From Escherichia coli (GTDB taxonomy: Bacteria > Pseudomonadota > Gammaproteobacteria > Enterobacterales > Enterobacteriaceae): DNA of 64,000 nucleotides. The translations under genes were made by a program, and so were the position numbers. Positions 5,977 to 52,583 of this stretch are shown piece by piece. The notes beneath the pieces were generated by a model. The model did no database searches. It saw only the letters and a program-made list of their open reading frames with translations, and was not told the DNA's origin. The DNA lies in NCBI RefSeq assembly GCF_013315695.1, contig NZ_CP054353.1. One strand, given 5' to 3'. Position 1 is the stretch's first letter; each line of letters begins with the position of its first letter.

Positions 5977-6513
5977 ATGGCCAGCAGAGGCGTAAACAAG
6001 GTTATTCTCGTTGGTAATCTGGGTCAGGACCCGGAAGTACGCTACATGCCAAATGGTGGCGCAGTTGCCAACATTACGCTGGCTACTTCCGAATCCTGGC
6101 GTGACAAAGCGACCGGCGAGATGAAAGAGCAGACTGAATGGCACCGCGTTGTGCTGTTCGGCAAACTGGCAGAAGTAGCCAGCGAATATCTGCGTAAAGG
6201 TTCTCAGGTTTATATCGAAGGTCAGCTGCGTACCCGCAAATGGACCGATCAATCCGGTCAGGATCGCTACACCACAGAAGTCGTGGTGAACGTTGGCGGC
6301 ACCATGCAGATGCTGGGTGGTCGTCAGGGTGGTGGCGCTCCGGCAGGTGGCAATATCGGTGGTGGTCAGCCGCAGGGTGGTTGGGGTCAGCCTCAGCAGC
6401 CGCAGGGTGGCAATCAGTTCAGCGGCGGCGCGCAGTCTCGCCCGCAGCAGTCCGCTCCGGCAGCGCCGTCTAACGAGCCGCCGATGGACTTTGATGACGA
6501 TATTCCGTTCTAG
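5977..6513 (+). CDS. ssb: Single-stranded DNA-binding protein (178 aa)
   Basis: [32 protein letters not shown]... OB-fold N-terminus, Gly/Gln/Pro-rich linker, acidic tip DFDDDIPF. Confidence 0.97.
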
Positions 6514-6551
6514 AGTTAACTTGTGAGTTATTTGTAAAGAATCCATACGCA

Positions 6552-6580
6552 GGCCCCTGTTAATTCAGGGGTTTTTTGTT
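6552..6580 (+). terminator. Intrinsic terminator of ssb
   Basis: Hairpin caggcccctg-ttaattc-aggggttttttg. Confidence 0.7.
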
Positions 6581-6650
6581 TCTATCGTCGGAAAAAGTGT
6601 CTTGTATAAATTGGTGATTTTTCACATAAAGTGTACCTTGTAATTGTGTA

Positions 6651-7919
6651 ATGTTTATGGGGTGTGAGTGCATGGAAAAGAACTACAGAGTTACAACATT
6701 TGTCATGGATAGTGGCGAGCGCTATTGCATGGTAGTGGATCGTGCTTCTGGGCTTCCCATGTATTACCCCACTCTGTTTCTAACAACTCAAATCCGCAAT
6801 AGAGAGGATGCTTTTTCAACGATGTTGGCGGCGGCTAACAACCTGGTTATGTTGTTACGCTTTGTAGAGAGTCGCGACATTGACCTTGAGCAGCGGTTTT
6901 TGACCAAAGACTTCTTCAAGCCACATGAGCTGGATGATCTGCGAGATTTTGCTCAGTGCAAACAAAGAAAGGGGCCATTAACTGTGTCCTCTACCTCTTG
7001 GTTGGCCGATGCGATGACCGATATCGTTGATAACGGGACACAGCATTCCCGGCTAACAACGTTTGCCAACTATTTACACTGGTATGCGATGCATATCTTA
7101 AAGACGACAGAACTGGAAGTTGTCGAAAAGATCAATGCTATGGCGGCGCAGATAAAGACGCGCCGACCATCTAAAAAGCGCAGAAACCACGACTTACAAG
7201 ACAGGTCATTGAGTGATGTTCAATTGGACGCGCTATTTGAAGTCATCCAGCCTAGATCAGAGTTAAACCCTTTCTCAATAGATGTGCAGCGCCGCAATCG
7301 GCTGATGATCTTACTTCTGTTTTATCTTGGCATCCGAGGTGGTGAATTATTAAATATAAGAATACAGGACATAGATTTTAGCGCTAACAGGATCCGTATC
7401 GTTAGGAGAGCAGATGAACAAGCTGACTCTAGAACCAATGAGCCTAATGCTAAAACTAGAGAACGGCTCTTACCGTTGGCTGAATCCTTAGCTCAAGAAC
7501 TGCATAGTTATATCCTTCAAGATCGCCGGAAAGTCAGAAATGCGAAGAAAAATGACTATCTGTTTGTAACTTACAAGAGTGGACCAACTCTGGGAAATCC
7601 TATCTCCAAAGGGGGATATCATAAAATTTTTTCCGTAGTCAGGTCTATATCACCGCAATTGTATGCAGCGACAGGACATTCGCTCCGCCACACTTGGAAT
7701 CGCAAGTTTTCAGAAAGAATGGATGCCATGAATGAGCAAGTCAGCGAGGAACGCCAAGAGCAACTTCGTTCGTACTTAATGGGCTGGAGAGATGGCTCGG
7801 GAACCGCAGCGACTTACAACAAGCGTTTCATTCGGCAAAAAGGTTTTGAGGCCGCCTTGGCATTACAAGCAGGTAACGGCACTAGCTTGCCAGAGGACTT
7901 CAAGGATGACCATGAATAA
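6651..7919 (+). CDS. Tyrosine recombinase 1 of trio (integrase family, 422 aa; start may be the internal Met at 6672)
   Basis: Catalytic signature seen in translation: ...GIRGGELLNI... (Arg), HSLRHTW (His-x-x-Arg), LMGWRDGSGTAATYNKRF (Tyr nucleophile). Confidence 0.8.
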   Translation: MFMGCECMEKNYRVTTFVMDSGERYCMVVDRASGLPMYYPTLFLTTQIRNREDAFSTMLAAANNLVMLLRFVESRDIDLEQRFLTKDFFKPHELDDLRDFAQCKQRKGPLTVSSTSWLADAMTDIVDNGTQHSRLTTFANYLHWYAMHILKTTELEVVEKINAMAAQIKTRRPSKKRRNHDLQDRSLSDVQLDALFEVIQPRSELNPFSIDVQRRNRLMILLLFYLGIRGGELLNIRIQDIDFSANRIRIVRRADEQADSRTNEPNAKTRERLLPLAESLAQELHSYILQDRRKVRNAKKNDYLFVTYKSGPTLGNPISKGGYHKIFSVVRSISPQLYAATGHSLRHTWNRKFSERMDAMNEQVSEERQEQLRSYLMGWRDGSGTAATYNKRFIRQKGFEAALALQAGNGTSLPEDFKDDHE

Positions 7920-9444
7920 CCTCTTACTTGGGTTAGTACCAGAACGAATCCGTGCCAGGGCCAATGGCTACTCTTTTCTGTTGTATGACACATCGTGGAC
8001 ATTGGATAGAAATATCACTATTAATCTTGCTGATATTCACCATTACTTGTCAGATGGGACGCTAGATGGCTGCCTGCGTACACTGGCGTTTTATGCATCC
8101 AATCGTTCTTCTTCTCATACAAAAAATATTCTTGAACGGTTTCAGCACATGCTGCGTGAGACTGACGCGAGAGAAATTACTGATACGGTATTGATTAATT
8201 ATCGGTCGATGCTGTCGCCTGCAACAGAATGGTATCTAGCAACCATCCGTGGCTTTCTTCGATCCTGGCACGAACTGGGCTATCCCGGCATCAGTAAGGA
8301 GGTGAACCGCTTGCTAGATGGCTGGACGCTAAAGGGTAATCGTAAGGGGGATGCGGTTAAGCGCATGGATCCTCAAGAGGGGCCACTGACGGATAATGAG
8401 CTGACAGCGTTTAACGAGGGGGCTGTTCGGGCTTATGAAAAGAGCTTAATTACTATAGCTGAGTTGGCTATAGCACTTGGCACCAGTCATACAGGACGTC
8501 GTCCCATTCAGATCTCGCTGCTTCGTGTGGTCGATGTCCTTTGTGGTAAAAATGGAAAGGGAGAGCCCTTCTATGTGTTGAATGTGCCGCGAGCCAAGCA
8601 GCGCAGCAGCTCTTTCCGAATAAACTTCAAACCATTTGCAATATCACTGGAACTATGGGCAATCCTGAGTGCTCAGGCAAGAAATGCGATTGCGCAGGTT
8701 GAAAATCGTTTGGGGTTTGAATTGCAGGAAGATGACCGGCAGCAAATCCCTCTTTTTCCTGATCTTGATGTGTTAGATGCCGTCCAATCTCCTTATGAAT
8801 TCCGCCAACTGCATGCTACCGACAAACTCCACATTCCCGCCGCAGAGATAACCGACACCCTCCAATACATCGTAGAAAAGTCCGACATCCGGTCGGAACG
8901 TACCGGTGAGCTATTACATATCAATGCTCGTCGTTTTCGTTATACCACAGGCACACGAGCTGCCCGGGAAGGCTTTGGCGAGCTGGTGATTGCGGAACTG
9001 CTTGACCACGCGGACACCCAAAACGCAGGCGTTTACATCAAGAATATCCCCGAGCATGTGAAAAAGCTTGATGAGGCGGTTGGCTTCCAATTAGCACCAT
9101 ACGCTCAGGCCTTTGTCGGGGCACTTGTCGATTCAGAGAGAGACGCGCATCGAGGTAACGACCCTACCAGTCGTATTCGGACCGAAATGGGTCAGGGTGT
9201 TGGTACTTGTGGAGAACATGGCTTTTGTGGTGCCAATGTTCCTATTCCTTGCTACACCTGCATGCATTTCCAGCCTTGGCTGGACGGCCCACATGAAGAT
9301 GTCTATCAAGGACTGCTCAACGAACGTGAACGGGTGAAAGAGATAACTGGCGACATCCAGATTGCTGCCGTACTTGATCGCAGTATTATCGCGCTGGCAG
9401 ATGTGATCATGCGTTGTGCAAAACGTCGTGAAGAGCTTAGTTAA
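7906..9444 (+). CDS. Tyrosine recombinase 2 of trio (about 513 aa)
   Basis: C-terminal region with RRFRYTTGTRAAREG and LLDHADTQNAGVYI (R/H...Y pattern); ATG at 7906 or 7912 overlaps the upstream stop at 7917-7919. The ORF-track start at 7792 is rejected as an overlap artefact. Confidence 0.75.
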   Translation: MTMNNLLLGLVPERIRARANGYSFLLYDTSWTLDRNITINLADIHHYLSDGTLDGCLRTLAFYASNRSSSHTKNILERFQHMLRETDAREITDTVLINYRSMLSPATEWYLATIRGFLRSWHELGYPGISKEVNRLLDGWTLKGNRKGDAVKRMDPQEGPLTDNELTAFNEGAVRAYEKSLITIAELAIALGTSHTGRRPIQISLLRVVDVLCGKNGKGEPFYVLNVPRAKQRSSSFRINFKPFAISLELWAILSAQARNAIAQVENRLGFELQEDDRQQIPLFPDLDVLDAVQSPYEFRQLHATDKLHIPAAEITDTLQYIVEKSDIRSERTGELLHINARRFRYTTGTRAAREGFGELVIAELLDHADTQNAGVYIKNIPEHVKKLDEAVGFQLAPYAQAFVGALVDSERDAHRGNDPTSRIRTEMGQGVGTCGEHGFCGANVPIPCYTCMHFQPWLDGPHEDVYQGLLNERERVKEITGDIQIAAVLDRSIIALADVIMRCAKRREELS

Positions 9445-9460
9445 CAGGGAGCAATAACCA

Positions 9461-11494
9461 ATGGCTGAGATTTTCCTGTTTAAGCCAAAGGCTACGCTGA
9501 CAGCAGCAGAAAACCTTGAAGCATTCATATCCCAGTGCCGAGATCAATTGACTGTATTCGGCTCTGATCTCACTTGGGAAGATCCTGTTTGGCCAAACAT
9601 AACTGTATTTGCCAAGTTGGGCATTATTACGAGAAAACCCATACTGGAAGAGACGCAAGACCCTGCTTTCATTGATTTTGCCAAAGCCTATTTCCGTTAC
9701 CAGCAGGGGCATAGCCTCTCTAGGGCAAAGAATGAAAGTAAAGCCCTCCGTGCGGTTGAGGCGGCTTTGCTTCAAGTAAATGGAAACGCAAATATTGATG
9801 GCCTGTCGATTTCTGTGCTGGATGAAGCAGCTGAATTGGCAAAGCATTACTACTCCGATGGCTCCGCATATCATTGTGGCCGTGAGATTGAGCGGCTGGC
9901 TAAGTTTGTAGCTGAAAACCAGCTTGTATCAAGTGCTGTACAAAATTGGGTCAATCCAATTAAACGTGCAGAGGATAAGAACAAAACGAGCAGAAAGGCG
10001 AAGAAAAATAGGGAAGATAAACTTCCGAGTGATATTGCTCTTAATGCGTTGGCGGAAATTTTTGCCAACGACCCAATTCATGAGCGAGACATATTTACAA
10101 CATCGGTTTTTGCCATGTTGATGTCGGCACCTTCACGTATTACTGAGGTGTTAGCACTGCCTGTGGATTGCGAGGTTTTTGAAACGGATCGTGAAGGGAT
10201 AGAACGATATGGTTGGCGTTTTTTTGCGGGGAAAGGCTATGAGGGTGATATCAAATGGATACCCACCGTGATGGTCGGTATAGCTAAGACAGCCGTAGCT
10301 AGAGCTAGAGTGCTCTCTGAAAATGCACGACAACTGGCCAAGTGGATCGAGAAACACCCGAATAAGTTTTACCGCCATGCTAACTGTCCCAGTGTAGCCG
10401 ATGATGAGCCATTGACGATGAAGCAGGTTTGTATGGCGCTCGGTTTTGCACATTACTCTAAAAAGACGTGCAGGTCGTGTCTTGGTAATCGAGGTTTAGC
10501 TAAAGAGGATGGTGTACATACTCTAAATAGCCTGTGGCAGCACACAATGGCGCGTTTACCGGATGGCTTTCCGTGGTTTGATAAAGACAAGGGAATTAGG
10601 TACAGCAATGCCTTGTTTGTACTGAACGTAAATCAGTTCCACGGGAACAGAGGATGCATACCAGTTGAGTTACATAAGCCAACCAATAATTTCTTCAACA
10701 GTGATCTGACGCCTCGTCTGTCCTTGAAAGGAAAACATGCCAGTATCTTTGATCGCCATGGTTACCATGCTGTAAACGGAGAGCCGGTGAAATTAACCTC
10801 ACATCAGGCTCGACACCTGCTCAACACCATTATCCAGCGCGGTGGCCTGTCAAACTTGGAAATTGCCAAGTGGTCGGGGCGGGCAGATGTGAAACAGAAT
10901 CGAACTTACAACCACATGACTGAATACGAACTGGTTGGCATTGCTGAACGCCTTGATCCCACAACAGCGCTATTTGGGCCTGCTGGCGAGGTGGCAAAGC
11001 ATCTGCCCGTGACTATGCAGGAGTTCAATACCTTAGAGCATGCCGCAGTCCATGTGACGGAGTATGGCTACTGTGTGCATGATTACACCATGAGTCCTTG
11101 TGAGAAATTCCGAGATTGCGTCAATTGTACCGAACAGGTTTGCATCAAAGGCGATGATGCTGAAAAGTTGGATCGCATTAAGATACGTCTGGAGAAATTA
11201 GAGCGACTGTTTTTTCTTGCTGACGCAGCAGTGGAAAGTGGTGAGATAGGAACTGATCGCTGGTATCAGTACCACAAGAAAACTGTTACCCGGCTTCGTG
11301 AACTAGTGGCTATTTTAGAGAATCCAGACATTGAAAATGGTGTCCAGATTAAGCTCCGGGGCAATGATTTCAGCCAGCTTCGCCGTGTTGTCGCAAAGAC
11401 GTCTATTGTGGCCATCGAGCAAAAAGGCAAAGAAAGTGAAGAAGCTGTGATGTTAGATGATTTGACAACTTTGTTAGGAGGTGGCCTTGGCTAA
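9461..11494 (+). CDS. Tyrosine recombinase 3 of trio (677 aa)
   Basis: LTSHQARHLLNT (H-x-x-R-H) and WSGRADVKQNRTYNHM (Tyr) motifs; RBS-like cagggag 8 nt upstream of ATG. Confidence 0.75.
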   Translation: MAEIFLFKPKATLTAAENLEAFISQCRDQLTVFGSDLTWEDPVWPNITVFAKLGIITRKPILEETQDPAFIDFAKAYFRYQQGHSLSRAKNESKALRAVEAALLQVNGNANIDGLSISVLDEAAELAKHYYSDGSAYHCGREIERLAKFVAENQLVSSAVQNWVNPIKRAEDKNKTSRKAKKNREDKLPSDIALNALAEIFANDPIHERDIFTTSVFAMLMSAPSRITEVLALPVDCEVFETDREGIERYGWRFFAGKGYEGDIKWIPTVMVGIAKTAVARARVLSENARQLAKWIEKHPNKFYRHANCPSVADDEPLTMKQVCMALGFAHYSKKTCRSCLGNRGLAKEDGVHTLNSLWQHTMARLPDGFPWFDKDKGIRYSNALFVLNVNQFHGNRGCIPVELHKPTNNFFNSDLTPRLSLKGKHASIFDRHGYHAVNGEPVKLTSHQARHLLNTIIQRGGLSNLEIAKWSGRADVKQNRTYNHMTEYELVGIAERLDPTTALFGPAGEVAKHLPVTMQEFNTLEHAAVHVTEYGYCVHDYTMSPCEKFRDCVNCTEQVCIKGDDAEKLDRIKIRLEKLERLFFLADAAVESGEIGTDRWYQYHKKTVTRLRELVAILENPDIENGVQIKLRGNDFSQLRRVVAKTSIVAIEQKGKESEEAVMLDDLTTLLGGGLG

Positions 11495-11906
11495 GCATCT
11501 GGACAATAGAGACATTAACGCCATCGTAAATCTAATTCGAGGATGGAAGGAACCAAAACTGTCCTGGTCAGCAATTTGTGAGGCGGCAGAACCATTGGTC
11601 GGAAAGTTGCCGTCAAGACAGTCCCTTAATGCACATGAGGCAATAGTGACTGCCTATCAAACAAAGAAAGAGGCGCTTAAAGGCCGTGGCCCCAAAAATC
11701 CGCGTCCAGCTAGTTTGAACATTGCAGCCGCGAGGATTGTGAATCTTGAAAGCGAAATCGAAGAGCTTAAGGAAGAGAACCGGAGGTACAAACAACAGTT
11801 TGTGATCTGGCAATACAATGCATACAAATATGGAATGACAGAACATCAACTTAATGCGCAGCTGACAAAGATTGACCGTGAGCGCTCTGATGGAGAAAGA
11901 AGATAG
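11481..11906 (+). CDS. Small protein (about 140 aa) coupled to recombinase 3; possible ginD-like accessory factor
   Basis: ORF overlaps the 3' end of recombinase 3 (GTG 11481 or TTG 11487 just after aggagg); C-terminal half has coiled-coil character (LESEIEELKEENRRYKQQ). Function not recognisable. Confidence 0.5.
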   Translation: MALAKHLDNRDINAIVNLIRGWKEPKLSWSAICEAAEPLVGKLPSRQSLNAHEAIVTAYQTKKEALKGRGPKNPRPASLNIAAARIVNLESEIEELKEENRRYKQQFVIWQYNAYKYGMTEHQLNAQLTKIDRERSDGERR

Positions 11907-11981
11907 TTGCTGAGTACGATATCGAGGGTACATTTCTCTGTGTAGGGGTAGTTATTTACAAAAAAATAGGAGAATAATTAA

Positions 11982-14900
11982 ATGGTCAAACCAAACTGGG
12001 ATAACTTTAAAGCTAAATTTAGTGAGAATCCTCAAGGTAATTTTGAGTGGTTTTGCTACTTGTTGTTCTGTCAAGAATTCAAAATGCCCGCAGGTATATT
12101 TAGATATAAGAATCAATCTGGTATCGAAACTAATCCAATAACCAAAGATAATGAAATTATCGGTTGGCAATCTAAATTCTATGACACAAAATTGTCGGAT
12201 AACAAAGCTGATCTTATAGAAATGATTGAGAAAAGCAAAAAGGCTTATCCAGGATTAAGTAAAATCATTTTCTATACTAATCAAGAGTGGGGGCAGGGGA
12301 GAAAGTCCCATGAACCTGAAGGCGATAAGAACGCTGATAATTATTTGGAAACTGTCGGAAATAGTAACGATCCCAAAATAAAAATTGAAGTTGATCAGAA
12401 AGCATATGAGTCGGGTATCGAAATAGTATGGAGAGTTGCTAGTTTTTTTGAATCACCGTTTGTAATAGTTGAGAATGAAAAGATTGCTAAACATTTCTTC
12501 TCCCTTAATGAAAGCATCTTTGATTTATTAGAAGAAAAGCGCAAGCACACAGAAAATGTTTTATATGAAATTCAAACCAATATAGAGTTCAAAGACAGAA
12601 GTATTGAAATTGACAGACGACATTGTATAGAACTTCTACATGAGAATCTAGTTCAGAAAAAAATTGTCATCGTCAGCGGAGAAGGTGGGGTTGGAAAAAC
12701 AGCAGTTATCAAAAAAATTTATGAAGCAGAAAAACAATACACTCCTTTCTATGTCTTTAAGGCTAGCGAGTTTAAAAAGGACAGTATTAATGAGCTATTC
12801 GGTGCGCATGGCTTAGACGATTTCTCTAATGCTCATCAAGACGAATTACGTAAAGTCATAGTCGTAGATTCTGCTGAAAAGCTTTTAGAACTGACCAATA
12901 TCGATCCTTTTAAAGAATTCCTGACTGTTTTAATAAAGGATAAATGGCAGGTTGTTTTCACAACCCGTAACAACTACTTGGCAGATCTGAACTATGCTTT
13001 CATAGATATTTATAATATAACTCCTGGAAACTTAGTAATAAAGAACCTTGAACGCGGCGAGCTAATAGAGTTATCTGATAACAATGGATTTAGCCTTCCT
13101 CAAGATGTTCGATTATTAGAACTAATCAAAAATCCATTTTATCTAAGTGAATATTTGAGGTTCTATACCGGTGAAAGCATCGATTATGTGAGCTTCAAAG
13201 AAAAGCTTTGGAATAAGATTATTGTCAAAAATAAACCTTCTCGGGAGCAGTGTTTCTTAGCGACTGCTTTTCAGCGGGCTAGTGAGGGCCAATTTTTTGT
13301 CTCCCCGGCATGTGATACTGGAATTTTAGATGAGTTAGTTAAAGACGGAATTGTCGGCTATGAAGCTGCTGGTTACTTCATTACACATGATATATACGAG
13401 GAATGGGCATTAGAAAAGAAAATTTCTGTCGATTATATCCGTAAAGCGAACAATAACGAGTTCTTCGAAAAAATAGGAGAATCACTTCCTGTTCGCCGTA
13501 GTTTTCGGAATTGGATATCTGAACGATTGCTTTTAGATGACCAGTCCATAAAGCCTTTTATCGCAGAAATAGTCTGTGGAGAAGGAATATCAAATTTTTG
13601 GAAAGACGAGTTATGGGTAGCTGTCCTTCTTTCCGATAATTCAAGCATATTTTTTAATTACTTTAAAAGATATTTACTTAGTAGTGACCAGAATCTATTA
13701 AAAAGACTTACTTTCTTATTGAGGCTTGCTTGCAAGGACGTTGATTACGATCTGCTTAAACAGTTAGGTGTAAGTAATTCAGATCTGCTTTCCATTAAAT
13801 ATGTTCTTACTAAGCCTAAGGGAACTGGTTGGCAGAGTGTGATCCAATTTATCTATGAAAATTTAGATGAAATAGGGATCAGAAATATTAATTTTATACT
13901 TCCTGTGATTCAGGAGTGGAATCAAAGAAACAAAGTGGGTGAAACGACTCGATTATCTAGTTTGATAGCCCTAAAATATTATCAATGGACTGTAGATGAG
14001 GATGTCTATTTATCCGGAAGGGATAATGAGAAAAATATTCTGCATACGATTCTTCATGGGGCGGCCATGATTAAACCTGAAATGGAAGAGGTTTTAGTTA
14101 AGGTTCTTAAAAATAGGTGGAACGAGCACGGTACCCCATATTTCGACCTTATGACCTTAATCCTTACTGACTTAGATTCATATCCGGTTTGGGCATCTCT
14201 CCCGGAATATGTTCTACAATTGGCAGATCTGTTCTGGTATCGGCCACTTAAAGAAACAGGCGAACGTTATCACAGTATGGATATTGAAGATGAGTTCGGT
14301 CTATTTAGGTCTCATCACGACTATTATCCAGAAAGTCCATATCAGACTCCTATATATTGGTTACTACAATCACAGTTCAAAAAAACAATAGACTTTATTC
14401 TTGATTTTACGAACAAGACAACGATATGTTTTGCCCACTCCCATTTTGCTAAAAACGAAATTGAAGAAGTCGATGTCTTTATTGAAGAAGGAAAGTTTAT
14501 AAAGCAATATATATGCAATCGTCTGTGGTGCTCATATCGAGGAACACAGGTCTCTACCTACTTACTTTCATCAATTCATATGGCATTGGAAAAATTTTTT
14601 CTTGAGAATTTTAAAAATGCAGACTCGAAAGTGTTGGAAAGTTGGCTTCTTTTCTTGTTAAGAAATACCAAGTCAGCTTCTATTTCTGCAGTAGTTACGA
14701 GTATTGTACTTGCATTCCCTGAGAAGACATTCAATGTAGCTAAAGTACTATTCCAAACAAAGGATTTCTTCCGTTTTGATATGAATCGAATGGTTCTAGA
14801 CAGAACACATAAAAGTTCATTAATCTCCCTCAGGGATGGCTTTGGCGGTACAGATTACAGAAACTCTTTGCACGAAGAAGATAGAATTAAAGCTTGCGAT

Positions 14901-16745
14901 GATGTGCATAGAAATACTTATCTTGAAAATCTTGCCTTGCATTATCAAATTTTCAGGAGTGAAAATGTAACGGAGAAAGATGTCATTGAAAGGCAACAAG
15001 TGCTCTGGGGTATTTTCGATAAATACTATAATCAGCTTCCAGATGAAGCTCAAGAAACTGAAGCCGATAAGACGTGGAGGCTCTGCTTGGCAAGAATGGA
15101 TCGGCGAAAGATGAAAATAACTACCAAGGAGAAAGATGAAGGGATTGAGATATCATTCAATCCTGAGATTGACCCTAAACTAAAGCAATATAGTGAGGAA
15201 GCAATAAAGAAAAACTCCGAGCATATGAAGTATGTAACGCTGAAACTATGGGCAAGCTATAAAAGAGAAAAGGATGAACGTTATAAGAATTATGGAATGT
15301 ATGAGGACAATCCGCAAATTGCTTTACAAGAGACCAAAGAAATAATAAAAAAGCTTAATGAGGAAGGGGGTGAAGATTTCAGACTATTAAATGGTAATAT
15401 ACCAGCAGACGTTTGTTCTGTATTACTGTTAGATTACTTTAATCAGTTGAATAATGAAGAGAGAGAATATTGTAAAGATATTGTTCTAGCATATTCTCAA
15501 CTTCCGTTGAAGGAAGGCTATAATTATCAGGTACAAGATGGGACAACCTCGGCAATTTCAGCCTTACCCGTGATTTATCATAATTATCCAATGGAAAGGG
15601 AGACTATAAAAACAATATTACTTTTGACACTGTTTAATGACCACTCTATTGGAATGGCAGGTGGGCGCTACTCAGTATTTCCTAGTATGGTGATTCATAA
15701 ATTATGGCTAGACTATTTTGATGATATGCAGTCTCTATTGTTTGGTTTTTTGATTTTAAAGCCAAAGTATGTAATTCTTTCAAGAAAAATCATTCATGAA
15801 AGTTATCGTCAAGTAGACTATGACATTAAAAAAATAAATATTAATAAGGTGTTTTTAAATAACTATAAGCATTGCATATCAAATGTCATCGATAATAAAA
15901 TATCTATAGATGATTTGGGAAGTATAGATATAGTTGATCTACATATTTTGAACACAGCTTTCCAATTAATTCCAGTTGATACTGTTAATATTGAACATAA
16001 GCAATTGGTTTCCTTAATTGTTAAAAGATTTTCTACAAGCCTATTGTCAAGTGTTCGAGAAGATAGAGTTGATTACGCTCTTCGGCAGTCTTTCTTGGAA
16101 AGATTTGCCTACTTTACGCTTCATGCGCCCGTGAGCGATATTCCCGATTATATAAAACCTTTTCTTGATGGTTTCAACGGTTCAGAGCCTATTTCAGAGT
16201 TATTTAAAAAATTTATTCTCGTCGAAGATAGATTAAATACTTACGCCAAATTTTGGAAGGTTTGGGATTTGTTTTTTGATAAAGTGGTTACTTTGTGCAA
16301 GGATGGAGATAGGTATTGGTATGTAGATAAAATTATAAAAAGTTACCTTTTTGCTGAATCTCCATGGAAAGAAAACTCTAATGGTTGGCACACATTTAAA
16401 GATAGCAATAGTCAATTCTTTTGCGATGTATCTAGGACTATGGGCCATTGCCCTTCAACTTTATATTCTCTTGCCAAATCTTTGAATAACATTGCCAGTT
16501 GCTATCTTAATCAAGGTATAACCTGGCTTTCAGAAATGTTGTCGGTTAATAAAAAGCTATGGGAAAAGAAATTGGAAAATGATACTGTTTATTTTTTAGA
16601 ATGTTTGGTTAGGCGGTATATTAACACTGAGCGTGAGCGAATTAGACGAACCAAACAGTTGAAAGAAGAGGTCTTAGTAATATTGGATTTTTTGGTAGAG
16701 AAAGGATCTGTTGTTGGTTATATGTCACGGGAAAATATTCTGTGA
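11982..16745 (+). CDS. Large STAND-type P-loop NTPase (1587 aa): N-terminal unknown domain (about 1-220), NTPase core (about 225-330), about 1250-aa helical C-terminal region; candidate anti-phage (Avs-like) protein
   Basis: Strong RBS (aggag, 9-nt spacer). Walker A GEGGVGKT (aa 233-240), Walker B VIVVDSAE (aa 292-299), TTR motif in QVVFTTRN (aa 323-330) typical of STAND NTPases. Very AT-rich codon usage; no transmembrane or secretion signals noticed. Confidence 0.8.
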   Translation: MVKPNWDNFKAKFSENPQGNFEWFCYLLFCQEFKMPAGIFRYKNQSGIETNPITKDNEIIGWQSKFYDTKLSDNKADLIEMIEKSKKAYPGLSKIIFYTNQEWGQGRKSHEPEGDKNADNYLETVGNSNDPKIKIEVDQKAYESGIEIVWRVASFFESPFVIVENEKIAKHFFSLNESIFDLLEEKRKHTENVLYEIQTNIEFKDRSIEIDRRHCIELLHENLVQKKIVIVSGEGGVGKTAVIKKIYEAEKQYTPFYVFKASEFKKDSINELFGAHGLDDFSNAHQDELRKVIVVDSAEKLLELTNIDPFKEFLTVLIKDKWQVVFTTRNNYLADLNYAFIDIYNITPGNLVIKNLERGELIELSDNNGFSLPQDVRLLELIKNPFYLSEYLRFYTGESIDYVSFKEKLWNKIIVKNKPSREQCFLATAFQRASEGQFFVSPACDTGILDELVKDGIVGYEAAGYFITHDIYEEWALEKKISVDYIRKANNNEFFEKIGESLPVRRSFRNWISERLLLDDQSIKPFIAEIVCGEGISNFWKDELWVAVLLSDNSSIFFNYFKRYLLSSDQNLLKRLTFLLRLACKDVDYDLLKQLGVSNSDLLSIKYVLTKPKGTGWQSVIQFIYENLDEIGIRNINFILPVIQEWNQRNKVGETTRLSSLIALKYYQWTVDEDVYLSGRDNEKNILHTILHGAAMIKPEMEEVLVKVLKNRWNEHGTPYFDLMTLILTDLDSYPVWASLPEYVLQLADLFWYRPLKETGERYHSMDIEDEFGLFRSHHDYYPESPYQTPIYWLLQSQFKKTIDFILDFTNKTTICFAHSHFAKNEIEEVDVFIEEGKFIKQYICNRLWCSYRGTQVSTYLLSSIHMALEKFFLENFKNADSKVLESWLLFLLRNTKSASISAVVTSIVLAFPEKTFNVAKVLFQTKDFFRFDMNRMVLDRTHKSSLISLRDGFGGTDYRNSLHEEDRIKACDDVHRNTYLENLALHYQIFRSENVTEKDVIERQQVLWGIFDKYYNQLPDEAQETEADKTWRLCLARMDRRKMKITTKEKDEGIEISFNPEIDPKLKQYSEEAIKKNSEHMKYVTLKLWASYKREKDERYKNYGMYEDNPQIALQETKEIIKKLNEEGGEDFRLLNGNIPADVCSVLLLDYFNQLNNEEREYCKDIVLAYSQLPLKEGYNYQVQDGTTSAISALPVIYHNYPMERETIKTILLLTLFNDHSIGMAGGRYSVFPSMVIHKLWLDYFDDMQSLLFGFLILKPKYVILSRKIIHESYRQVDYDIKKININKVFLNNYKHCISNVIDNKISIDDLGSIDIVDLHILNTAFQLIPVDTVNIEHKQLVSLIVKRFSTSLLSSVREDRVDYALRQSFLERFAYFTLHAPVSDIPDYIKPFLDGFNGSEPISELFKKFILVEDRLNTYAKFWKVWDLFFDKVVTLCKDGDRYWYVDKIIKSYLFAESPWKENSNGWHTFKDSNSQFFCDVSRTMGHCPSTLYSLAKSLNNIASCYLNQGITWLSEMLSVNKKLWEKKLENDTVYFLECLVRRYINTERERIRRTKQLKEEVLVILDFLVEKGSVVGYMSRENIL

Positions 16746-16790
16746 TGTAGTTGAAAATAATAATTTTAATGAGAGCTTTTCCAATTTAGG

Positions 16791-16815
16791 CTCCAGGGAT
16801 TGGAGCCTTTTTATT
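16791..16815 (+). terminator. Intrinsic terminator after the large NTPase gene
   Basis: Hairpin ggctccaggg-a-ttggagcc followed by tttttatt. Confidence 0.6.
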
Positions 16816-16840
16816 ATCGAAAAGATTAATATCTTATAAG

Positions 16841-17059
16841 TCAATCAGTAAAACGCAGCAAAGCTCGTTGCTCTTGAATGTTCACTCCGTGATAAATTCT
16901 TTGATTACCACATAAATAACAAGAACAAGCACAAGGGGTGCAGTAAATTTTCCCTACAACTTTTTCAGTTTTAGCCAACGCAATTCGATATGTTTTTCTC
17001 TTAGATTTTAACCGAGATATATGATGACGACGCCATGCCCGATTTCTAACCATTTCCAT
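16841..17059 (-). CDS. Small basic Cys-rich hypothetical protein (72 aa)
   Basis: ORF with GGAG-type RBS; Arg/Lys-rich N-terminus and a CTPCACSCYLCG cysteine cluster (possible zinc ribbon). No family recognised. Confidence 0.3.
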   Translation of the reverse strand: MEMVRNRAWRRHHISRLKSKRKTYRIALAKTEKVVGKIYCTPCACSCYLCGNQRIYHGVNIQEQRALLRFTD

Positions 17060-17283
17060 TCACTCCAATTTTCTACCGCGGTGTTATACCGCGCCCGTAT
17101 CAATCTTTGGAGTTCGATATCGATCTGACCTTTCATGAATACCTCGGAATTTATCAATAAAGTGAGTGCTATATCATAGCTTATGGGATGAAAGTTTGAT
17201 ATTTAGCACTTTTCAGCTTTAGGTAAAGCTGTCCTCAATAAAGCTAATTTCTTGTTTATTAATGGAATTTCTATGTGGAAGTG

Positions 17284-18105
17284 TTAGAAATCCTGTTTTA
17301 CTTTATCCATCGTTAAAACTTTACTTATTATATAAGGATCATAATTTCTTATACTCATAAGGCAATTTATCAAATTGGAAACGTGGCTATCATCAGGTAT
17401 AAGTATATATTTAATATCATCGAAAGAAAAACCAATGCCAAATTCAGAGAATTTTTTACTTAAGACGGCCTTCTGGTTAGGTTCCACCACTCGCTCTAAA
17501 TTTAGGCTAGGCCATAAATCGCCAACAAACGGATGCGGTACATATCTCCATTCTTTTTCGTCAGCGTAGATATAATTCTCAATGGTTTTTTCGTTCGTCC
17601 TTTCTAATTTCCCTTTATAATTTTTCATATAGCGTAATAAATTATAAAGGTCAGCGTACTCTTCTTTAAGGCTTTCAAAATACTTACGCTCTTTATTATC
17701 AAGGATATGCCTTTTCGACCATAGCGGAATTAACGCATCCTTTAGTTTTCTAATTCTTTTATTATACTTTGAAAATAATTCACTGCCTTGATTCATGTAT
17801 AGAACGGGATGGAGATCATTTTTCTCAGCCCATTCTTTTGTTAACCCAAATCCAAATTCACCATATTTTCCACTATGATCTTTAATCTGAGAAAGCTTGA
17901 TGTCACAGAATGAAACCATTGGTACTGCGAAATTTCTTCTTCCTTTTACTCCGACTATGCGTTCACGGGCAAGAAATGGTTTAAAATAGAGTTCTGTTAA
18001 AATGCTATAGAATGCCTCTTCATTTTTAGTAAAGTGAAACAACGTTGTTGGATGTAAACTATTAACTGCTTGTATAACTGTTTCTTGGTTTTCTATAGCA
18101 CTCAT
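17284..18105 (-). CDS. AbiGi-like abortive-infection family protein (273 aa)
   Basis: N-terminal LFHFTKNEEAFYSILTE... resembles, by recall, the FHFT-type N-terminus of AbiGi-family proteins; AT-rich; convergent with the NTPase gene. Confidence 0.55.
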   Translation of the reverse strand: MSAIENQETVIQAVNSLHPTTLFHFTKNEEAFYSILTELYFKPFLARERIVGVKGRRNFAVPMVSFCDIKLSQIKDHSGKYGEFGFGLTKEWAEKNDLHPVLYMNQGSELFSKYNKRIRKLKDALIPLWSKRHILDNKERKYFESLKEEYADLYNLLRYMKNYKGKLERTNEKTIENYIYADEKEWRYVPHPFVGDLWPSLNLERVVEPNQKAVLSKKFSEFGIGFSFDDIKYILIPDDSHVSNLINCLMSIRNYDPYIISKVLTMDKVKQDF

Positions 18106-18483
18106 ATATTAACTGTTCCATAGTGTAAAACCTGACTTAGCAAAGGTTATCATACTAGTCTTTGTACTGTAAGCACACTTGGTTTAATTCCACGCACTTT
18201 TTGAGATTTCCGGTTTTTTGATCTCTTACCAAAATCTATGCCAGATTGAATCAAAGGTCCGAGCTGGGTCACCAAAAAAAGTAAAATTATGCACTTTGAT
18301 AGATTATATTTTAACTAAATTCTTTACAGTTAAATCATTTCTTATGCCTTAGTTTCTGATAAAAAAGGTTTTTTTTCACGATTTATAAGTATCAGGTTAT
18401 GTGAACCGTTCTGATTTGTCGTTAAAACAATAGGTTATATTGTTTTAAGGTGGATGATTAAAGCATCTGCCAGCCATAAAAAA

Positions 18484-23618: not shown

Positions 23619-25044
23619 TAATGCCAGTCAGTTAAGCAACTGACTGGCTCTTTTTCGGGGCTGTGGGGTATTTCCAGGGCCTCTCCTTTACCACTCTCGG
23701 GAAGGCCCTTTCCCTTCTTGTCGGTAATTTCACAAGTTGTCCCATACTTGCAAGATCGCGCATCAGCTCCGGTATACGTCCCGGTGAAGCGCCCTGCAAT
23801 GTCATCAGCATTCTCATCACCATTCCGCATGATTCTGAGAAACTCAGTTGATTCGGCCAGTAACCTTTCAGATGTTCCGCCATTTTAATCATCTGATATC
23901 TCACCAGATTATAAGCCAGTAAGACACCCCACAGCTCTTGCTCCACAAGCTCCGGTTTTTTACTTCTCAGCGTCAGCCTGCTCAGTTGCATCGTCTGTTT
24001 TATCTCCCTGTATCCCAGTTCGATTTCCCAGCGATGACTGTACAGATCCGCCATTTCTCCTCCGGGGAAGCGCATGGCGTCCGTCATCGACGTCAGCAGA
24101 TGGCAGACTTTTCCTTTGCGCGTCACGGTCAGCAGGCGGGCTGTCACTTCATTTCCCAGTCCCGGCCACTTTTTTCGTGCCTGCGGGCTGGTTTTCAGCT
24201 TCACCAGATGATCGCCTTTACCCAGTTTTCTGATCTCTTCATATTGCGCTCCCTTTCTGAGAGGTATCATCCAGTGGCGGTGTTCTCCCGCCAGGCTCCA
24301 GGCATTTAACAGTCCCAGTGAGTAATAACCTTTATCCATTAACGTCAGAGTGTTATCGCCGGTTTGTTCTATAAGTTGCTCAGCAAGCTCATTTTCGCTG
24401 TTCTTCATCGTGCCGAAGGCTGCAGCCGTCAGCAGATGGCTGGTCAGTTCCATCTGGCAGACCATTTTGACCTGCGGGTAGAGCGCCGGGTTCCCGGCAT
24501 GTGTCTGGCGGGGGAAGGCTGCATCGTTCTCTGGTGTATCCGGTGTGCGCCAGAACACACCATCGATGGCCAGCAGGGTCAGGCCGCACCAGTGCGGATG
24601 CGGCGTGGCGTTATGCCAGAGCTGCGCTGTTTTCGTGAACACGCGGCGGACAGCCTCACTTCCCAGGCGCTGGCGGGCCTGAATAACGGCACTGGGGGCA
24701 ACGAAGGGGCGATTGCCCGGCAGCATGATGTCCAGGCGATTCACAATCTGGTGAAGAGGTTCTTTACGCTCAAGCGCCATGCCAACAATACACCAGACCA
24801 TCATTTCGAGGGGAAGACGGCGCTTGCGTAGCGTTACAGTACCTGATTCGGCAAGGCAACGAGAGATGAGTTCGGGGTCGAGGTAATCCCCCAGAGAAGT
24901 CAGTGGGTTACGCAGAGAATCGTAACGGGATACCAGATCAAGAGCCTGTCCAATGTGCATAAAAAAATCCGGAAACAAGTGAGCGTTTCCGGATTCTTAC
25001 ACAGCCACTGGATCGGTCAACTGATCCTTAACTGATCGGCATTA
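23619..25044 (-). mobile_element. Insertion sequence IS4, complete (1426 bp)
   Basis: Terminal inverted repeats TAATGCCAGTCAGTTAAG (left) and CTTAACTGATCGGCATTA (right, 16/18 match); length 1426 bp equals canonical IS4; single transposase ORF. Confidence 0.9.
23632..24978 (-). CDS. insG: IS4 transposase (DDE family, 448-aa ORF)
   Basis: ORF fills the IS; translation recognised as IS4 transposase by recall. Confidence 0.88.
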
Positions 25045-47725: not shown

Positions 47726-49711
47726 TTAATTTGGGGTTACGATATTCACCCACAAATCGAAATTATCCAGACAGGCAATAATTTCTTCCAGTTTTGCGCC
47801 ATTGCCAATAATTTTGGCTTTCTTCGCCTTTACCAGATCCGCCATTTTGGCTTGTCCGACCAGCACGTCGTGCAGATCGCTGCGGCTCATGTAAAACGAT
47901 GCGTCTACCTTCGGTTGCAGTACTTTACGGTAGTTCAATACGCTATTGTTGAGTGAGAGGTTCAGGTTATCGTTGTCAGAGAGATTGAAGTTCAGGCTGA
48001 TGGATTTGCCCGCGGCTTTCTCACTGTTCAGACGAACAGCCATGTAATCAAGCAGCATCTCGACGGTCATACCCTTGATGGTGTCAGGAGAGGCGGTGCT
48101 GGCGTGTTCGATTTTCTTCGCGCCCTCACGCAGTTCTTTCGCTCCCGTCAGGTAGAAGCCGCGCCAGGTGGCTGATTCGGCCTGATAACCCAATTGTTCG
48201 AAGGTATCGGCCTGTAGGTTTTTCGCCACCTGGTCTCCCGGATTGGCAGCAATCACCTGTTTCAGCAGTTCAGAGGCCCAGCGGTAGTCGCCCTGGTTAT
48301 AGGCTTCACGCGCCAGATTGATAGCATGTGCGGAACCTCCCAGCGCTTTGACATAACGTTTACCCATATCGACCTGGCCATACGGATTCAGGTTTGCTGG
48401 GTTACCGTCGTAGTAGCCGAGGTAAAAGTTATATACCGCGCGAGCGTTATGACTGACGGAGCCATAATAGCCACGGCTGGCCCAGTTTTTATCCAGCGTT
48501 TCCGGCAGATGAATCATGTTGCCGATTTCATTCATGGTGTAACCCTGGTTCGCCAGGTGCAGGGTCTGGTCGTGAATATACTTAATGGTGTCGCGATATT
48601 TTCCAATATAATCATTGATATGTTGATTACCCCATACTGGCCAGGTATGTGGCATAAACAGCACTTCTGCTTGTGATCCCCACTTATCCAGCGTTTCATT
48701 CAGGTAATCGGTCCACTTCGCGGTATCACGGGTTTTCGCGCCACGCAGGGTGTAGAAGTTATGCAGGGTATGGGTGCTGTTTTCCGCTGTGCACAGGGCT
48801 TTCAACGCCGGAATATAGAGGTGCATTTCAGACGGCGCTTCGCTGCCTGGAGCCATCAGGAATTCGAAATCCAGCCCGTCGATATTGAGTTTCTCTCCTG
48901 TCTTGGTGATAGATCGCGTCGGCGCGATAATTGTCGGGCCGCCGGTAGTAAGCGTAACACCCAGCCCGTTGCCGATATCTCCCTGTGCATTATGCGGGAG
49001 TAGCAGGCCGTAAGAGTAAAATGCACGGCGACTCATGATATTACCCGCCAGCACGTTTTCACTGATGGCTTCGTCCATAAAGCCTGCCGGGGCGATGATC
49101 TGCACTTTGCCTGCTTTTACATCGGCTTCTGAGACAATACCTTTTACGCCGCCATAGTGGTCAGTGTGGCTGTGGGTGTAGATAACGGCCACAATCGGTT
49201 TTTGTGGGCGGTGTTTGAAATAGAGATCAAGGCTGGCTTTTGCTGCATTTGGCGTCACCAGCGGGTCAATGACGATGATGCCCGTATCACCTTCAATGAA
49301 GGTGATGTTCGAGATATCCTGGCTGCGCACCTGATACATGCGGTCGGTGACTTTAAACAGGCCAGAAATGCCGTTGATCTGCGACTGACGCTACAGGCTT
49401 GGGTTAACGGTTTCGGGCGCGGGCGCATTGATATCAAATTTATAATCTTCTCCGAGATAATATGGTTTGCCATTAGCATCGCGCAGAATACCTTCATCCA
49501 GCAGCGGAGCGATAAATCCACGCTGAGCATCGTCAAAATCCTGACGATCGCTAAACGGTAATGATTTGGCGTAATTCTGATTAACCTGTTGGGTATATTG
49601 AGTGGCGGCTTTCGCTTCATCTGTTGCGTTAGCGGTATTTACCATCATGCCGCTGGCGGCAGTTAACGCAATAACAATCCTGCTCAAACGGAATAACCGA
49701 GAGTTATTCAT
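47726..49711 (-). pseudogene. yjcS: Alkyl/aryl-sulfatase family (MBL-fold) yjcS interrupted by an in-frame TAG at 49391-49393
   Basis: ORFs 49391-49723 and 47726-49339 are in the same frame; direct translation across the gap gives ...[31 protein letters not shown]...; MBL motif [11 protein letters not shown] is downstream of the stop. Confidence 0.8.
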
Positions 49712-51602: not shown

Positions 51603-52583
51603 TTACTTACTGATAAGACGGTCAAGGGCGACAGCCGCGATAATTAATCCGCCCATCACCACCAGTTGGTAATAGGTTTGTACCTGCAAAATATTCAGAC
51701 CGTTGTTGATGGTGCCGATGATCAACCCGCCAATCACCACAGAGAAAATGCGCCCCTTGCCGCCGAAGAAACTGGTGCCGCCAATGATGGCGCTGGCAAT
51801 GGCATAGGTTTCAAAACCCATACCGGCAAGCGGTTCTGCGGCACCGAGTCGTGCAGTTGAGACGACGCCTGCCAGACCTGCACAAACACCGGAGATGATA
51901 AACACCACCAGGATGTGGAATTTCACGTCAATCCCGGAATAGAACGCCGAGTTTTTGTTGCCGCCCAGTGCGTAGATGTTGCGTCCGAGCCGCATACGCG
52001 TTGTCAGAAACCAAAGGATGAGCGCGACAATTAGCGAGAAGATAACGGGAACAGGTATCCCAATTACGCTGGCGGCAAAGAAGTTCACGAAGTCAAATTA
52101 GAAGCCGTATACCGAGTTGGCATCGGAGATCACCAGCGTGATCCCACGGAAAATAGCGTTGGTACCAAGGGTGATAATAAATGGGTGTAGCCCCGTCCAG
52201 TTGACCAGGCAGCCGTTGATCGCCCCCAGTGCACCGCCAACCAGTACACCGCCAATCAGCGCCGCGAGAAACGGGTCAACACCTGCCAACATCAGTTTGG
52301 CGGTCACCATACCGGAAAGCGCCAGAATCGCGCCAACCGAGAGGTCGATACCAGCGACCAGGATAGCGAAAAACTCGCCCATGCCGATCAATACCGTCAC
52401 GGAGCTTTGCACAAAAATCTGGGTAATATTATTGGTGGTCAGAAAATATTCTGGTGACAGCGAACCAAAGATGGCGACGATGATCGCCAGGATAAAAAAG
52501 GTGCCGTATTTATCCCAGAACAGCGCAAAGTTGAACGGTTTCTTCTCGCTCGCTTCGCTTTTTACTCGTGTGGTAAAGCCCAT
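51603..52583 (-). pseudogene. alsC: D-allose ABC transporter permease alsC interrupted by an in-frame TAA at 52098-52100
   Basis: ORFs 52098-52583 and 51603-52088 are in the same frame; translation reads ...SDANSVYGF*FDFVNFFAASVIG...; total span equals 326 codons, as expected for AlsC. Confidence 0.8.

Follow-up and report, generated by a model that had tools for sequence, protein, structure and literature searches.

The four genes at positions 6672-11906 of the analyzed DNA (hereafter the window, a stretch of 64,000 nucleotides from Escherichia coli) very probably constitute the ginABCD recombination module of a GInt, which is inserted at the end of ssb and carries anti-phage cargo. GInts are an element class that has already been described, and the island at 6512-18412 has already been catalogued, so that its recognition by itself raises no new question. 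What is added here beyond the catalogue is modest, namely the base-level ends of the element and its copies at plasmid ssb genes.

The definition of a GInt, its ssb target and the need for all four genes were given by Bardaji 2017 (PMC5385486). The same locus was entered for ST131 strains by Idola 2023 (PMC10214605) as a ginC-ginD block, and the corresponding entry in Additional file 10 of that paper (NZ_CP015138.1 1429848-1431881) falls within a 100%-identical copy of the island. Furthermore, Hochhauser 2023 (PMC10121019) reported that E. coli hotspot #39 (yjcB-ssb) holds a 12,000 bp, 7-gene GInt with AVAST_IV, and this entry, from E. coli PPECC42, agrees with the island in its length, number of genes and cargo. 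The yjcB-ssb defence island of a further paper (ISME J 2024, PMC11728103) has its site and element class in common with ours. The two papers on hotspot #39 give no base-level ends, and otherwise differ in nothing substantive from our description. Since the surveys of Idola 2023 and Hochhauser 2023 both started from experimentally studied GInt proteins, those of P. stutzeri DSM 4166 and Pht-PAI, and both include the island, its class membership is supported at the level of homology by two published searches.

A four-gene module directly behind ssb

Directly 3' of ssb and all on the plus strand, we found ginA (6672..7919), encoding an ordinary-size tyrosine recombinase of 415 aa, ginB (7906..9444), encoding a large divergent tyrosine recombinase of 512 aa, ginC (9461..11494), encoding a protein of 677 aa that is predicted to fold as a tyrosine recombinase and is extended at its C-terminus by a Cys/His-rich and helical part, and ginD (11487..11906), encoding a small helical protein of 139 aa. 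The ORF list bore out the four plus-strand ORFs of the initial annotation at their places, and the tight packing described there was confirmed: ginA and ginB overlap by 14 nt, a gap of 16 nt separates ginB from ginC, and the fourth gene does overlap the end of the third recombinase gene, by 8 nt. Gene starts were taken with the help of a near-identical RefSeq record, which has 8 mismatches to the window across 64 kb. The longest ORF for ginA runs from 6651 (422 aa), and the start at 6672 was favored by the annotation of this record together with conservation among homologues. For ginD, the TTG at 11487 was favored over the GTG at 11481; homologues begin with MAKHL, and a GGAGG lies 6 nt upstream of the TTG.

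A search for related loci, in which a 20-sequence alignment was used because a 111-sequence one was too diverse, gave 59 loci in species-level genomes with protein identity to the window proteins down to about 28-32%. Identity to the proteins of distant GInts is thus low, down to about 30% in our loci; according to Bardaji 2017, it is less than 35% between families. The A-B-C-D order recurred in those of the 59 loci that were neither truncated nor decayed, in Gamma-, Beta- and other Proteobacteria, which indicates that the four-gene module is not a product of chance. Thus, the 5' end of the island is formed by a packed, one-strand operon of four genes whose order is conserved in related loci, as in GInts.

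An Arg, His-x-x-Arg, Tyr pattern had been claimed for all three large proteins; it was found in GinA and GinC, and in GinB only in part, as the His of HxxR is not conserved there. In GinA, R222, K261, H336-x-x-R339, W372 and Y382 were each conserved in 51/51 sequences, and the protein matched Pfam PF00589 (E = 5.8e-15) and the phrog_1 integrase (2.5e-22); a sequence search of the PDB returned only partial XerC-like and IntI4 matches. GinB conserves R199, K231, R345, H368 and Y377, but varies at position 342, where HxxR would have its His: 27/48 sequences have R there and the others N, T, Q or V. It matched PF00589 with E = 0.015 only, over the C-terminal motif, and NCBIfam NF041502 'site-specific integrase' with 678 bits (cut-off 350). 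Its box I region aligned with that of GinA (hhalign, E = 3e-4), and a single-sequence search of the PDB gave nothing useful. GinA therefore carries the full tyrosine-recombinase set, and the signature of GinB consists of R-K-xxxR-H-Y together with the NF041502 match.

For GinC, 50-52 of 52 loci conserve R226, K265, H448-x-x-R451, W471 and Y483, and the R-K-HxxR-W-Y set showed at least 90% conservation among 111 representatives. The match of GinC to PF00589 was not significant (E = 0.55), and a 20-sequence profile searched against PDB sequences yielded nothing useful. Consequently, in the Pfam check that had been proposed for the three ORFs, GinA was the sole protein to pass, because PF00589 was not significant for GinB or GinC. 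None of the 111 GinC relatives matched this profile at E <= 0.001 (19 did at E <= 0.1), so that sequence profiles alone are insufficient to call GinC a recombinase, and its assignment is by predicted fold. When the AlphaFold2 model of GinC (pLDDT 91) was compared with the PDB by Foldseek, the top 50 matches were all tyrosine recombinases, including Cre, XerH, IntI4, Tn1549 Int, XerA and lambda Int, with E of about 1e-4 and target-normalised TM values of 0.5-0.57. This is consistent with the GinC of a GInt, which is divergent yet folds like a tyrosine recombinase. Profile alignment of GinA, GinB and GinC by hhalign, which served solely to see motif correspondence, gave low probabilities (40%, 1.5% and 2.8%).

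Published GinC was said to be without the first Arg by Bardaji 2017 (PMC5385486) and was described as lacking the Tyr by Idola 2023 (PMC10214605). In contrast, the GinC studied here has kept both the Arg at the box I position and the Tyr. Candidate catalytic residues are kept in all three Gin recombinase-like proteins, which bears on the three-recombinase mechanism of GInts, SEs and Tn554.

The fourth gene had been described as encoding about 140 aa with coiled-coil character, and structure prediction had been proposed as a check. Our results fit this description: the AlphaFold2 model of the 139 aa GinD (pLDDT 83) is built from four short helices and a long one spanning residues 77-115. In the literature, GinD has been given the label 'HLH'. 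Matches of GinD to Pfam leucine-zipper profiles were not significant, and no GinD family was found in Pfam, NCBIfam or PADLOC. GinD thus has the small size (about 130-150 aa), the lack of a known domain and the helical C-terminus that mark this protein in GInts.

Element ends, ssb target and cargo

The target gene ssb (5977..6513, plus strand) ends in the codons ..ATT CCG TTC TAG, which contain attL. The left direct repeat, the attL core CCGTTCT, occupies 6505..6511 and is the point at which identity between chromosome and plasmid copies begins; the attR core CCGTTCT occupies 18406..18412 and is followed by GA, which with it forms the displaced original ssb stop TGA. Bounded by these repeats, the whole GInt extends over 6512..18412, or 11,901 bp counting one repeat copy (plus strand, as are all end features given here). 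On either side, CCGTTCT is the precise point at which identity ends, and the stop of the local ssb is found in attR: TGA in the chromosome and TAA in plasmids, whose copies read CCGTTCT-AA at this point. The TAG that ends ssb at the occupied site is supplied by the element, empty sites reading TGA, and the SSB C-terminus, DDDIPF, is unchanged by the insertion. Published GInts likewise commonly insert where ssb ends, so that attL lies over the stop and SSB is unchanged. In-silico deletion of 6512-18412 restored an ssb|yjcB junction that is contiguous in 4971/5426 complete E. coli genomes, 100%-identical examples among them, and ssb lay directly upstream of the module in 32 of the 43 related loci with enough flank. 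Thus, the base-level ends, the att core and the stop-codon swap are now defined for the GInt at the ssb-yjcB hotspot in ST131-like E. coli.

The direct repeats, CCGTTCTAG / CCGTTCTGA, are perfect over 7 nt and match at 7/9 positions if extended. Short direct repeats are thus present as in GInts, although they are shorter than the published imperfect repeats of 10-17 nt (CCGTTCTAAT / CCGTTTTGAAT). Inverted words common to both ends measure only 8-10 nt. At the left end, a conserved segment, AGTTAACTTGTGAG..TTTGTAAAGAAT (6514..6542), is probably a binding site for a recombinase, as judged from its conservation: of the 34 GInts listed as inserted at ssb, most have xACCTTAGA-N7-9-TGTAAA at a constant distance from the ssb stop. 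A terminator-like hairpin with a T-run (6551..6584) follows inside the element, between ssb and ginA and just after the former, and a GC-rich hairpin then a T-run was seen at the equivalent position in most related GInts. The opposite end is AT-rich and non-coding (18106..18405, 31% GC) and finishes with ..TATCAGGTTATGTGAA; GInts likewise have an AT-rich 3' end, described as short and poorly conserved. That of the island includes ATTCTTTACA (18319-18328), an inverted copy of TGTAAAGAAT from the left end, and its terminal pattern, TATCAGGT.AT...GAA, recurs in a variant GInt.

The cargo adjoins ginD, as it does in GInts. Its first gene, avs4 (11982..16745, plus strand), starts 76 nt past the ginD stop and encodes an AVAST type 4 anti-phage STAND NTPase/nuclease of 1587 aa, which scored 2066 bits against NCBIfam NF041815 (cut-off 1500) and 2361 bits against PADLOC Avs4. 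The minus strand carries an ORF for a Cys-rich protein of 72 aa (16841..17059), which is a hypothetical protein in the annotation of pSD_88 and had no PADLOC match, and a gene for an AbiGi-like protein of 273 aa (17284..18105; PADLOC AbiGi 1.6e-44, phrog_13416 3e-98, only 45 bits against NCBIfam AbiGI with its cut-off of 300). From module to cargo, GC content falls from 47% to 35%. At the same site, a variant element whose module is 87% identical carries other defence cargo (a Gabija-like pair by product names, and a dGTPase), which begins at the corresponding point after the module. The anti-phage defence cargo found here differs from the toxin or resistance cargo of the GInts of Bardaji. A metagenomic GInt relative (P0237, from the GinC representatives of 737-757 aa) has Shedu-like cargo.

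Altogether, like published GInts, the island opens with a ginABCD operon, carries its cargo behind ginD, closes with an AT-rich 3' end, is flanked by short direct repeats and lacks transfer genes. The preference of the initial annotation for a GInt-like over a Tn554-like or RIT arrangement is upheld by these features and by attL lying over the ssb stop, every GInt structural feature that can be assessed from sequence having been found. The increase in gene size along the trio, to which it had also pointed, is real in this locus but is not a defining property of GInts.

Plasmid copies and proposed movement

The module was present in 373-436 genomes, and the plasmid-ssb::ginA junction was found in at least 26 plasmid records. 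The IncFIA/FIC plasmid NZ_LR898876.1 carries the element behind the plasmid ssb with 0 mismatches over 11,901 bp, and its host strain also has a chromosomal copy of the GInt; the copy in Salmonella Dublin pSD_88 has 7 mismatches to the element.

We propose that the element excises as a circle, in which the attI junction would read ..TATCAGGTTATGTGAA-CCGTTCT-AGAGTTAAC. Such excision is supported only indirectly, by the element being identical at two different ssb genes. Integration would then take place inside the CCGTTCT coding for the final Pro-Phe of SSB, through strand exchange of the tyrosine-recombinase type. As the element would supply a stop codon of its own (TAG) as well as a terminator, SSB would stay intact, and the old ssb stop would be pushed to attR. 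With the conserved end of ssb genes in general as its target, the element lands in the chromosome (hotspot #39) as well as behind the ssb of IncF plasmids, and the latter would give a non-conjugative island a ride between cells. The requirement for four Gin proteins, the circular intermediate and the strand-cleavage roles are presumed here by analogy with the Pseudomonas experiments of Bardaji 2017 (PMC5385486).

The landing sites include the ssb that IncF conjugative plasmids carry in their leading region, which goes beyond the literature that we found; no paper mentioning both GInts and plasmid leading regions turned up within the literature searched. Because the chromosomal and plasmid copies do not differ at a single base and one strain has both, this non-conjugative defence island may shuttle between chromosomes and conjugative plasmids via ssb 3' ends, reaching Salmonella. 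Plasmid ssb copies are a plausible route of spread for Avs4, which, if this is true, would sit in the part of the plasmid that is first to enter the recipient. Likewise, the complete and strongly conserved R-K-HxxR-W-Y set in a large family suggests that GinC may act catalytically, as a third recombinase, and not as a structural partner. The joint reading, in which the defence island shuttles via plasmid ssb and GinC is a third active recombinase, is offered tentatively, as somewhat short of probable.

Related elements and alternative explanations

RITs (recombinase-in-trio elements) consist of three recombinases between long inverted repeats and are not known to have a fourth gene or cargo. 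The three adjoining tyrosine-recombinase-like genes of the island resemble this arrangement, and an ordinary recombinase, a large one and a small protein recall tnpA, tnpB and tnpC of Tn554, where a small helical protein also comes last and insertion is also site-specific. However, the conserved fourth gene, the 6.5 kb cargo and terminal repeats that are direct rather than long and inverted distinguish the island from RITs, the inverted words at its ends being those of 8-10 nt described above. Tn554, which was discovered in Staphylococcus and Enterococcus, differs in that it has only two recombinase-like genes, resides in Firmicutes and inserts at another target, and no detectable sequence similarity has been reported between its genes and those of GInts. 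We therefore give almost no credence to a RIT or a Tn554-like transposon. The gamma-mobile-trio (GmtX/Y/Z) was ruled out, GinA scoring 17 bits against the NCBIfam profile of its recombinase GmtY, whose cut-off is 340. Strand-biased circularizing integrative elements of the intA-tfp-intB-srap type (SE-6283, SE-6945 and others), with copy-out-like movement, resemble the island in that four core genes at one end encode two RHRY recombinases, a divergent protein of recombinase fold and, as the fourth, a small helical protein, as well as in site preference, a lack of transfer genes and occurrence on chromosomes and conjugative plasmids (PMC10214605). Variant L063, with CCGTTCT as the attL core and CCATTTT as that of attR, also resembles the SE pattern, in which attL gets the spacer of the target and attR that of the element. 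Nevertheless, the divergent recombinase-fold protein is second in SEs, and the most divergent recombinase-like protein is third here, as in GInts. SEs also have imperfect terminal inverted repeats and hosts that are mostly Vibrionales, Pseudomonadales and Alteromonadales. According to Idola 2023 (PMC10214605), SE and GInt proteins cluster apart, the locus is placed among the GInts, and 0.3% of Escherichia replicons have SEs compared with 7.5% for GInts. An SE is thus an extremely unlikely identity for the island, which we continue to regard as a GInt.

Finally, the island might be a GInt by descent that is now a fixed, immobile remnant in its lineage, with four genes that no longer act. The element occurs at >=99% identity in 361 records, in keeping with inheritance by descent within a successful clone, a promoter scan upstream of ginA gave no sigma-70-like site, and cell-to-cell transfer of GInts could not be demonstrated by Bardaji 2017 (PMC5385486). 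We nonetheless consider loss of activity very unlikely, given that the four ORFs are intact and their catalytic residues conserved. The 0-mismatch copy over 11.9 kb lies at another ssb, that of a plasmid whose host strain has the chromosomal copy as well, and together with the 7-mismatch copy on the Salmonella plasmid it argues for recent site-specific movement of the GInt.

A GInt downstream of ssb

The window derives from the E. coli chromosome and is collinear with NZ_OZ547117.1 (8 mismatches in 64 kb). Directly 3' of ssb (5977-6513, + strand), we found all four + strand genes of the proposed module, i.e., ginA (6672-7919; 415 aa), ginB (7906-9444; 512 aa), ginC (9461-11494; 677 aa) and ginD (11487-11906; 139 aa), with a 14 nt overlap between ginA and ginB, a 16 nt gap between ginB and ginC and an 8 nt overlap between ginC and ginD. 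The gene coordinates of the initial annotation were thus correct, although its starts at 6651 and 11481 are those of the longest ORFs, whereas homologue conservation and the RefSeq annotation favor 6672 and a TTG codon at 11487 that is preceded by GGAGG at a distance of 6 nt.

The module is followed by avs4 (11982-16745, + strand; NCBIfam 2066 bits, PADLOC 2361 bits) and by an AbiGi-like gene (17284-18105, - strand), which was matched by PADLOC AbiGi (1.6e-44) but scored only 45 bits with NCBIfam AbiGI, far below the cut-off of 300, and beside which no AbiGii-like partner is annotated. Between these genes lies a 72 aa Cys-rich and basic ORF (16841-17059, - strand), hypothetical in the Salmonella Dublin plasmid pSD_88 and without a match in PADLOC. 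The AbiGi-like gene is followed by 300 bp of non-coding sequence (31% GC) and then yjcB.

GInts are mobile islands defined by a ginABCD operon together with cargo, a 3' end rich in AT and imperfect repeats of 10-17 nt, e.g. L:CCGTTCTAAT / R:CCGTTTTGAAT; 6 of 11 examined were located at the ssb end, with attL overlapping the gene's end, and experiments in Pseudomonas showed that a circle is formed and that excision and integration need all four gin genes (Bardaji 2017, PMC5385486). A PSI-BLAST search of RefSeq that started from GinC and GinD of P. stutzeri detected GInts in 7.5% of Escherichia replicons, and the resulting list includes a 677 aa protein at 1429848-1431881 of NZ_CP015138.1 (Idola 2023, PMC10214605), a position that falls within a 100%-identical match to our module. 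Furthermore, hotspot #39 was shown to be occupied by GInts (Fig 3D of Hochhauser 2023, PMC10121019); the tables of that study define it as yjcB-ssb and type a 12,000 bp, 7-gene island there as 'GInt' with 'AVAST_IV', and another paper likewise describes a defence island between yjcB and ssb at hotspot 39 (ISME J 2024, PMC11728103). The fit to the published definition and these listings therefore support the initial reading of the island as a GInt, and show that it has been catalogued before. As alternative identities, SE, RIT, Tn554 and the NCBIfam gamma-mobile-trio were considered, and none fits. Our analysis leaves this classification unchanged and adds the element ends at base level with an exchange of stop codons, base-identical copies that follow ssb both on the chromosome and on IncF plasmids, and a full candidate catalytic set conserved in GinC.

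Candidate catalytic residues of GinA, GinB and GinC

Judged by its sequence, GinA is an ordinary tyrosine recombinase: it matches PF00589 (E = 5.8e-15), and R222, K261, H336, R339, W372 and Y382 are each kept in 51 of 51 relatives. This profile match was not shared by the other two proteins, which the initial annotation had also called tyrosine recombinases. GinB gave only a weak Pfam match (E = 0.015), along with 678 bits to the NCBIfam 'site-specific integrase' model NF041502, and hhalign aligned the box I regions of GinB and GinA (E = 3e-4). GinC had no significant Pfam match (E = 0.55), nor did any of 111 relatives at E <= 0.001. The Arg / HxxR / Tyr pattern ascribed to all three proteins was borne out by conserved sets in GinA and GinC; in GinB, R199, K231, R345, H368 and Y377 are conserved, but HxxR lacks a conserved His, position 342 being R in 27 of 48 sequences.

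The AlphaFold2 model of GinC is of high confidence (pLDDT 91), and its top 50 PDB matches are exclusively tyrosine recombinases, including Cre, XerH, IntI4, Tn1549 Int, XerA and lambda Int (~420-520 aligned columns, target-normalised TM 0.5-0.57). R226 (within the box I-like motif APSRITEV), K265 (on strand three of a three-stranded sheet), H448-x-x-R451, W471 and Y483 are kept in 50-52 of 52 loci. Across 111 GinC representatives with identities as low as 29%, R451 and Y483 never vary, and each of the other residues in the set is at least 90% conserved. GinC thus appears to retain a full candidate catalytic set, an assignment based on motif similarity, the order of secondary-structure elements and the weak Pfam alignment (residues 441-487 against positions 124-169 of the 172-position model). 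This differs from previous descriptions, in which GinC was missing the first Arg (Bardaji 2017, PMC5385486) or was a recombinase-fold protein without a catalytic tyrosine or RHRY motif (Idola 2023, PMC10214605). Beyond the catalytic Tyr, GinB and GinC also have in common a conserved region rich in Cys and His (GinB residues ~425-455, 9180-9270; GinC residues 529-563, 11040-11150), which may be a metal-binding module; in GinC, C538, C547 and C556 do not vary, and H540 and C553 hardly do.

Element ends and copies behind plasmid ssb

The final ssb codons are CCG TTC TAG (6505-6513), and a second CCGTTCT, followed by GA, is found at 18406-18412. In silico removal of 6512-18412 yielded an ssb-TGA-yjcB junction, which runs uninterrupted in 4971 of the 5426 complete E. 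coli genomes, in several of them with 100% identity; the four-gene module was found in 373-436 genomes. The entire 11,901 bp element is also present behind plasmid-borne ssb in IncF plasmids, between ssb and DUF905/parB-like/psiB genes. The plasmid copy in NZ_LR898876.1 (locus L061, 11479-23900), whose host strain MSB1_4I carries a chromosomal copy as well, shows 0 mismatches to the chromosomal element, and that of pSD_88 (same locus coordinates) has 7. The plasmid-ssb::ginA junction occurs in at least 26 plasmid records, with ssb alleles of varying sequence. In a literature search of a limited collection, no paper was found that joins 'GInt' with the plasmid 'leading region', which is weak negative evidence.

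When chromosomal and plasmid copies were aligned, the CCGTTCT cores proved to be the exact limits of identity. The attR core continues with GA on the chromosome (CCGTTCT-GA) and with AA on the plasmid (CCGTTCT-AA), i.e., the displaced stop codon of the respective ssb, and attL carries the TAG of the element in both. Altogether, these features indicate that the element would recombine inside the Pro-Phe codons of ssb, leaving SSB intact and supplying its own stop codon.

Related loci and left-end motifs

At E <= 0.001, 1524 cluster representatives of GinC were found. Scanning one genome per species gave 59 loci, most of them from Gammaproteobacteria and Betaproteobacteria and a few from MAGs labelled as Desulfobacterium or Acidiphilium, and the A-B-C-D order is kept wherever the locus is neither truncated nor decayed. 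In 32 of 43 loci with enough flank, ssb terminates no more than 600 bp upstream of ginA. Of the 34 left ends listed next to ssb, most contain xACCTTAGA-N7-9-TGTAAA at a constant spacing from the ssb stop, followed in most by a GC-rich hairpin and T-run, which would end ssb transcription inside the element; the window counterpart spans 6514-6584, with an element-borne terminator-like hairpin at 6551-6584. Part of the left-end motif, TGTAAAGAAT (6533-6542), has an inverted copy, ATTCTTTACA, near the right end (18319-18328), which may represent a recombinase binding site or a coincidence, since it would not be very unlikely for two AT-rich ends to share a 10-mer by chance. A second inverted word, TTCACATAA / TTATGTGAA (6621-6629 and 18397-18405), the right copy of which abuts the attR core, may likewise represent binding sites or chance matches.

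An E. coli variant, NZ_LR536430.1 (17045-37200), occupies the same ssb-yjcB site with a gin module of 87% identity, attR CCATTTT as opposed to attL CCGTTCT, and ~15 kb of different cargo that, by RefSeq product names, includes a UvrD-helicase-domain protein and an ATP-dependent nuclease (Gabija-like by these names), 7-deazaguanine-related genes, dGTPase, MazE-like genes and IS421. A more distant relative on metagenome contigs (L065-L067, 3026-10044; GinC of 741 aa, E = 2.8e-91 to that of the window) is inserted behind a PHP/DNA_pol3_alpha gene, and its first cargo gene is of Shedu type (SduA_C), again defence cargo. The draft genome of the alphaproteobacterium Martelella alba has a gin module 87% identical to that of E. 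coli beside an enterobacterial-like ssb, which may reflect contamination or recent transfer.

Elsewhere in the window, the annotation of a near-identical RefSeq record places an IS4 copy between ghxP and yjcE (23632-24978, - strand) and marks an alkyl/aryl-sulfatase gene (47726-49711, - strand) and alsC (51603-52583, - strand) as pseudogenes with internal stops. Positions 1-1000, in the tyrB to aphA interval, form a 35% GC stretch with a frameshifted hypothetical gene (642-864, - strand) that bears no relation to the GInt.
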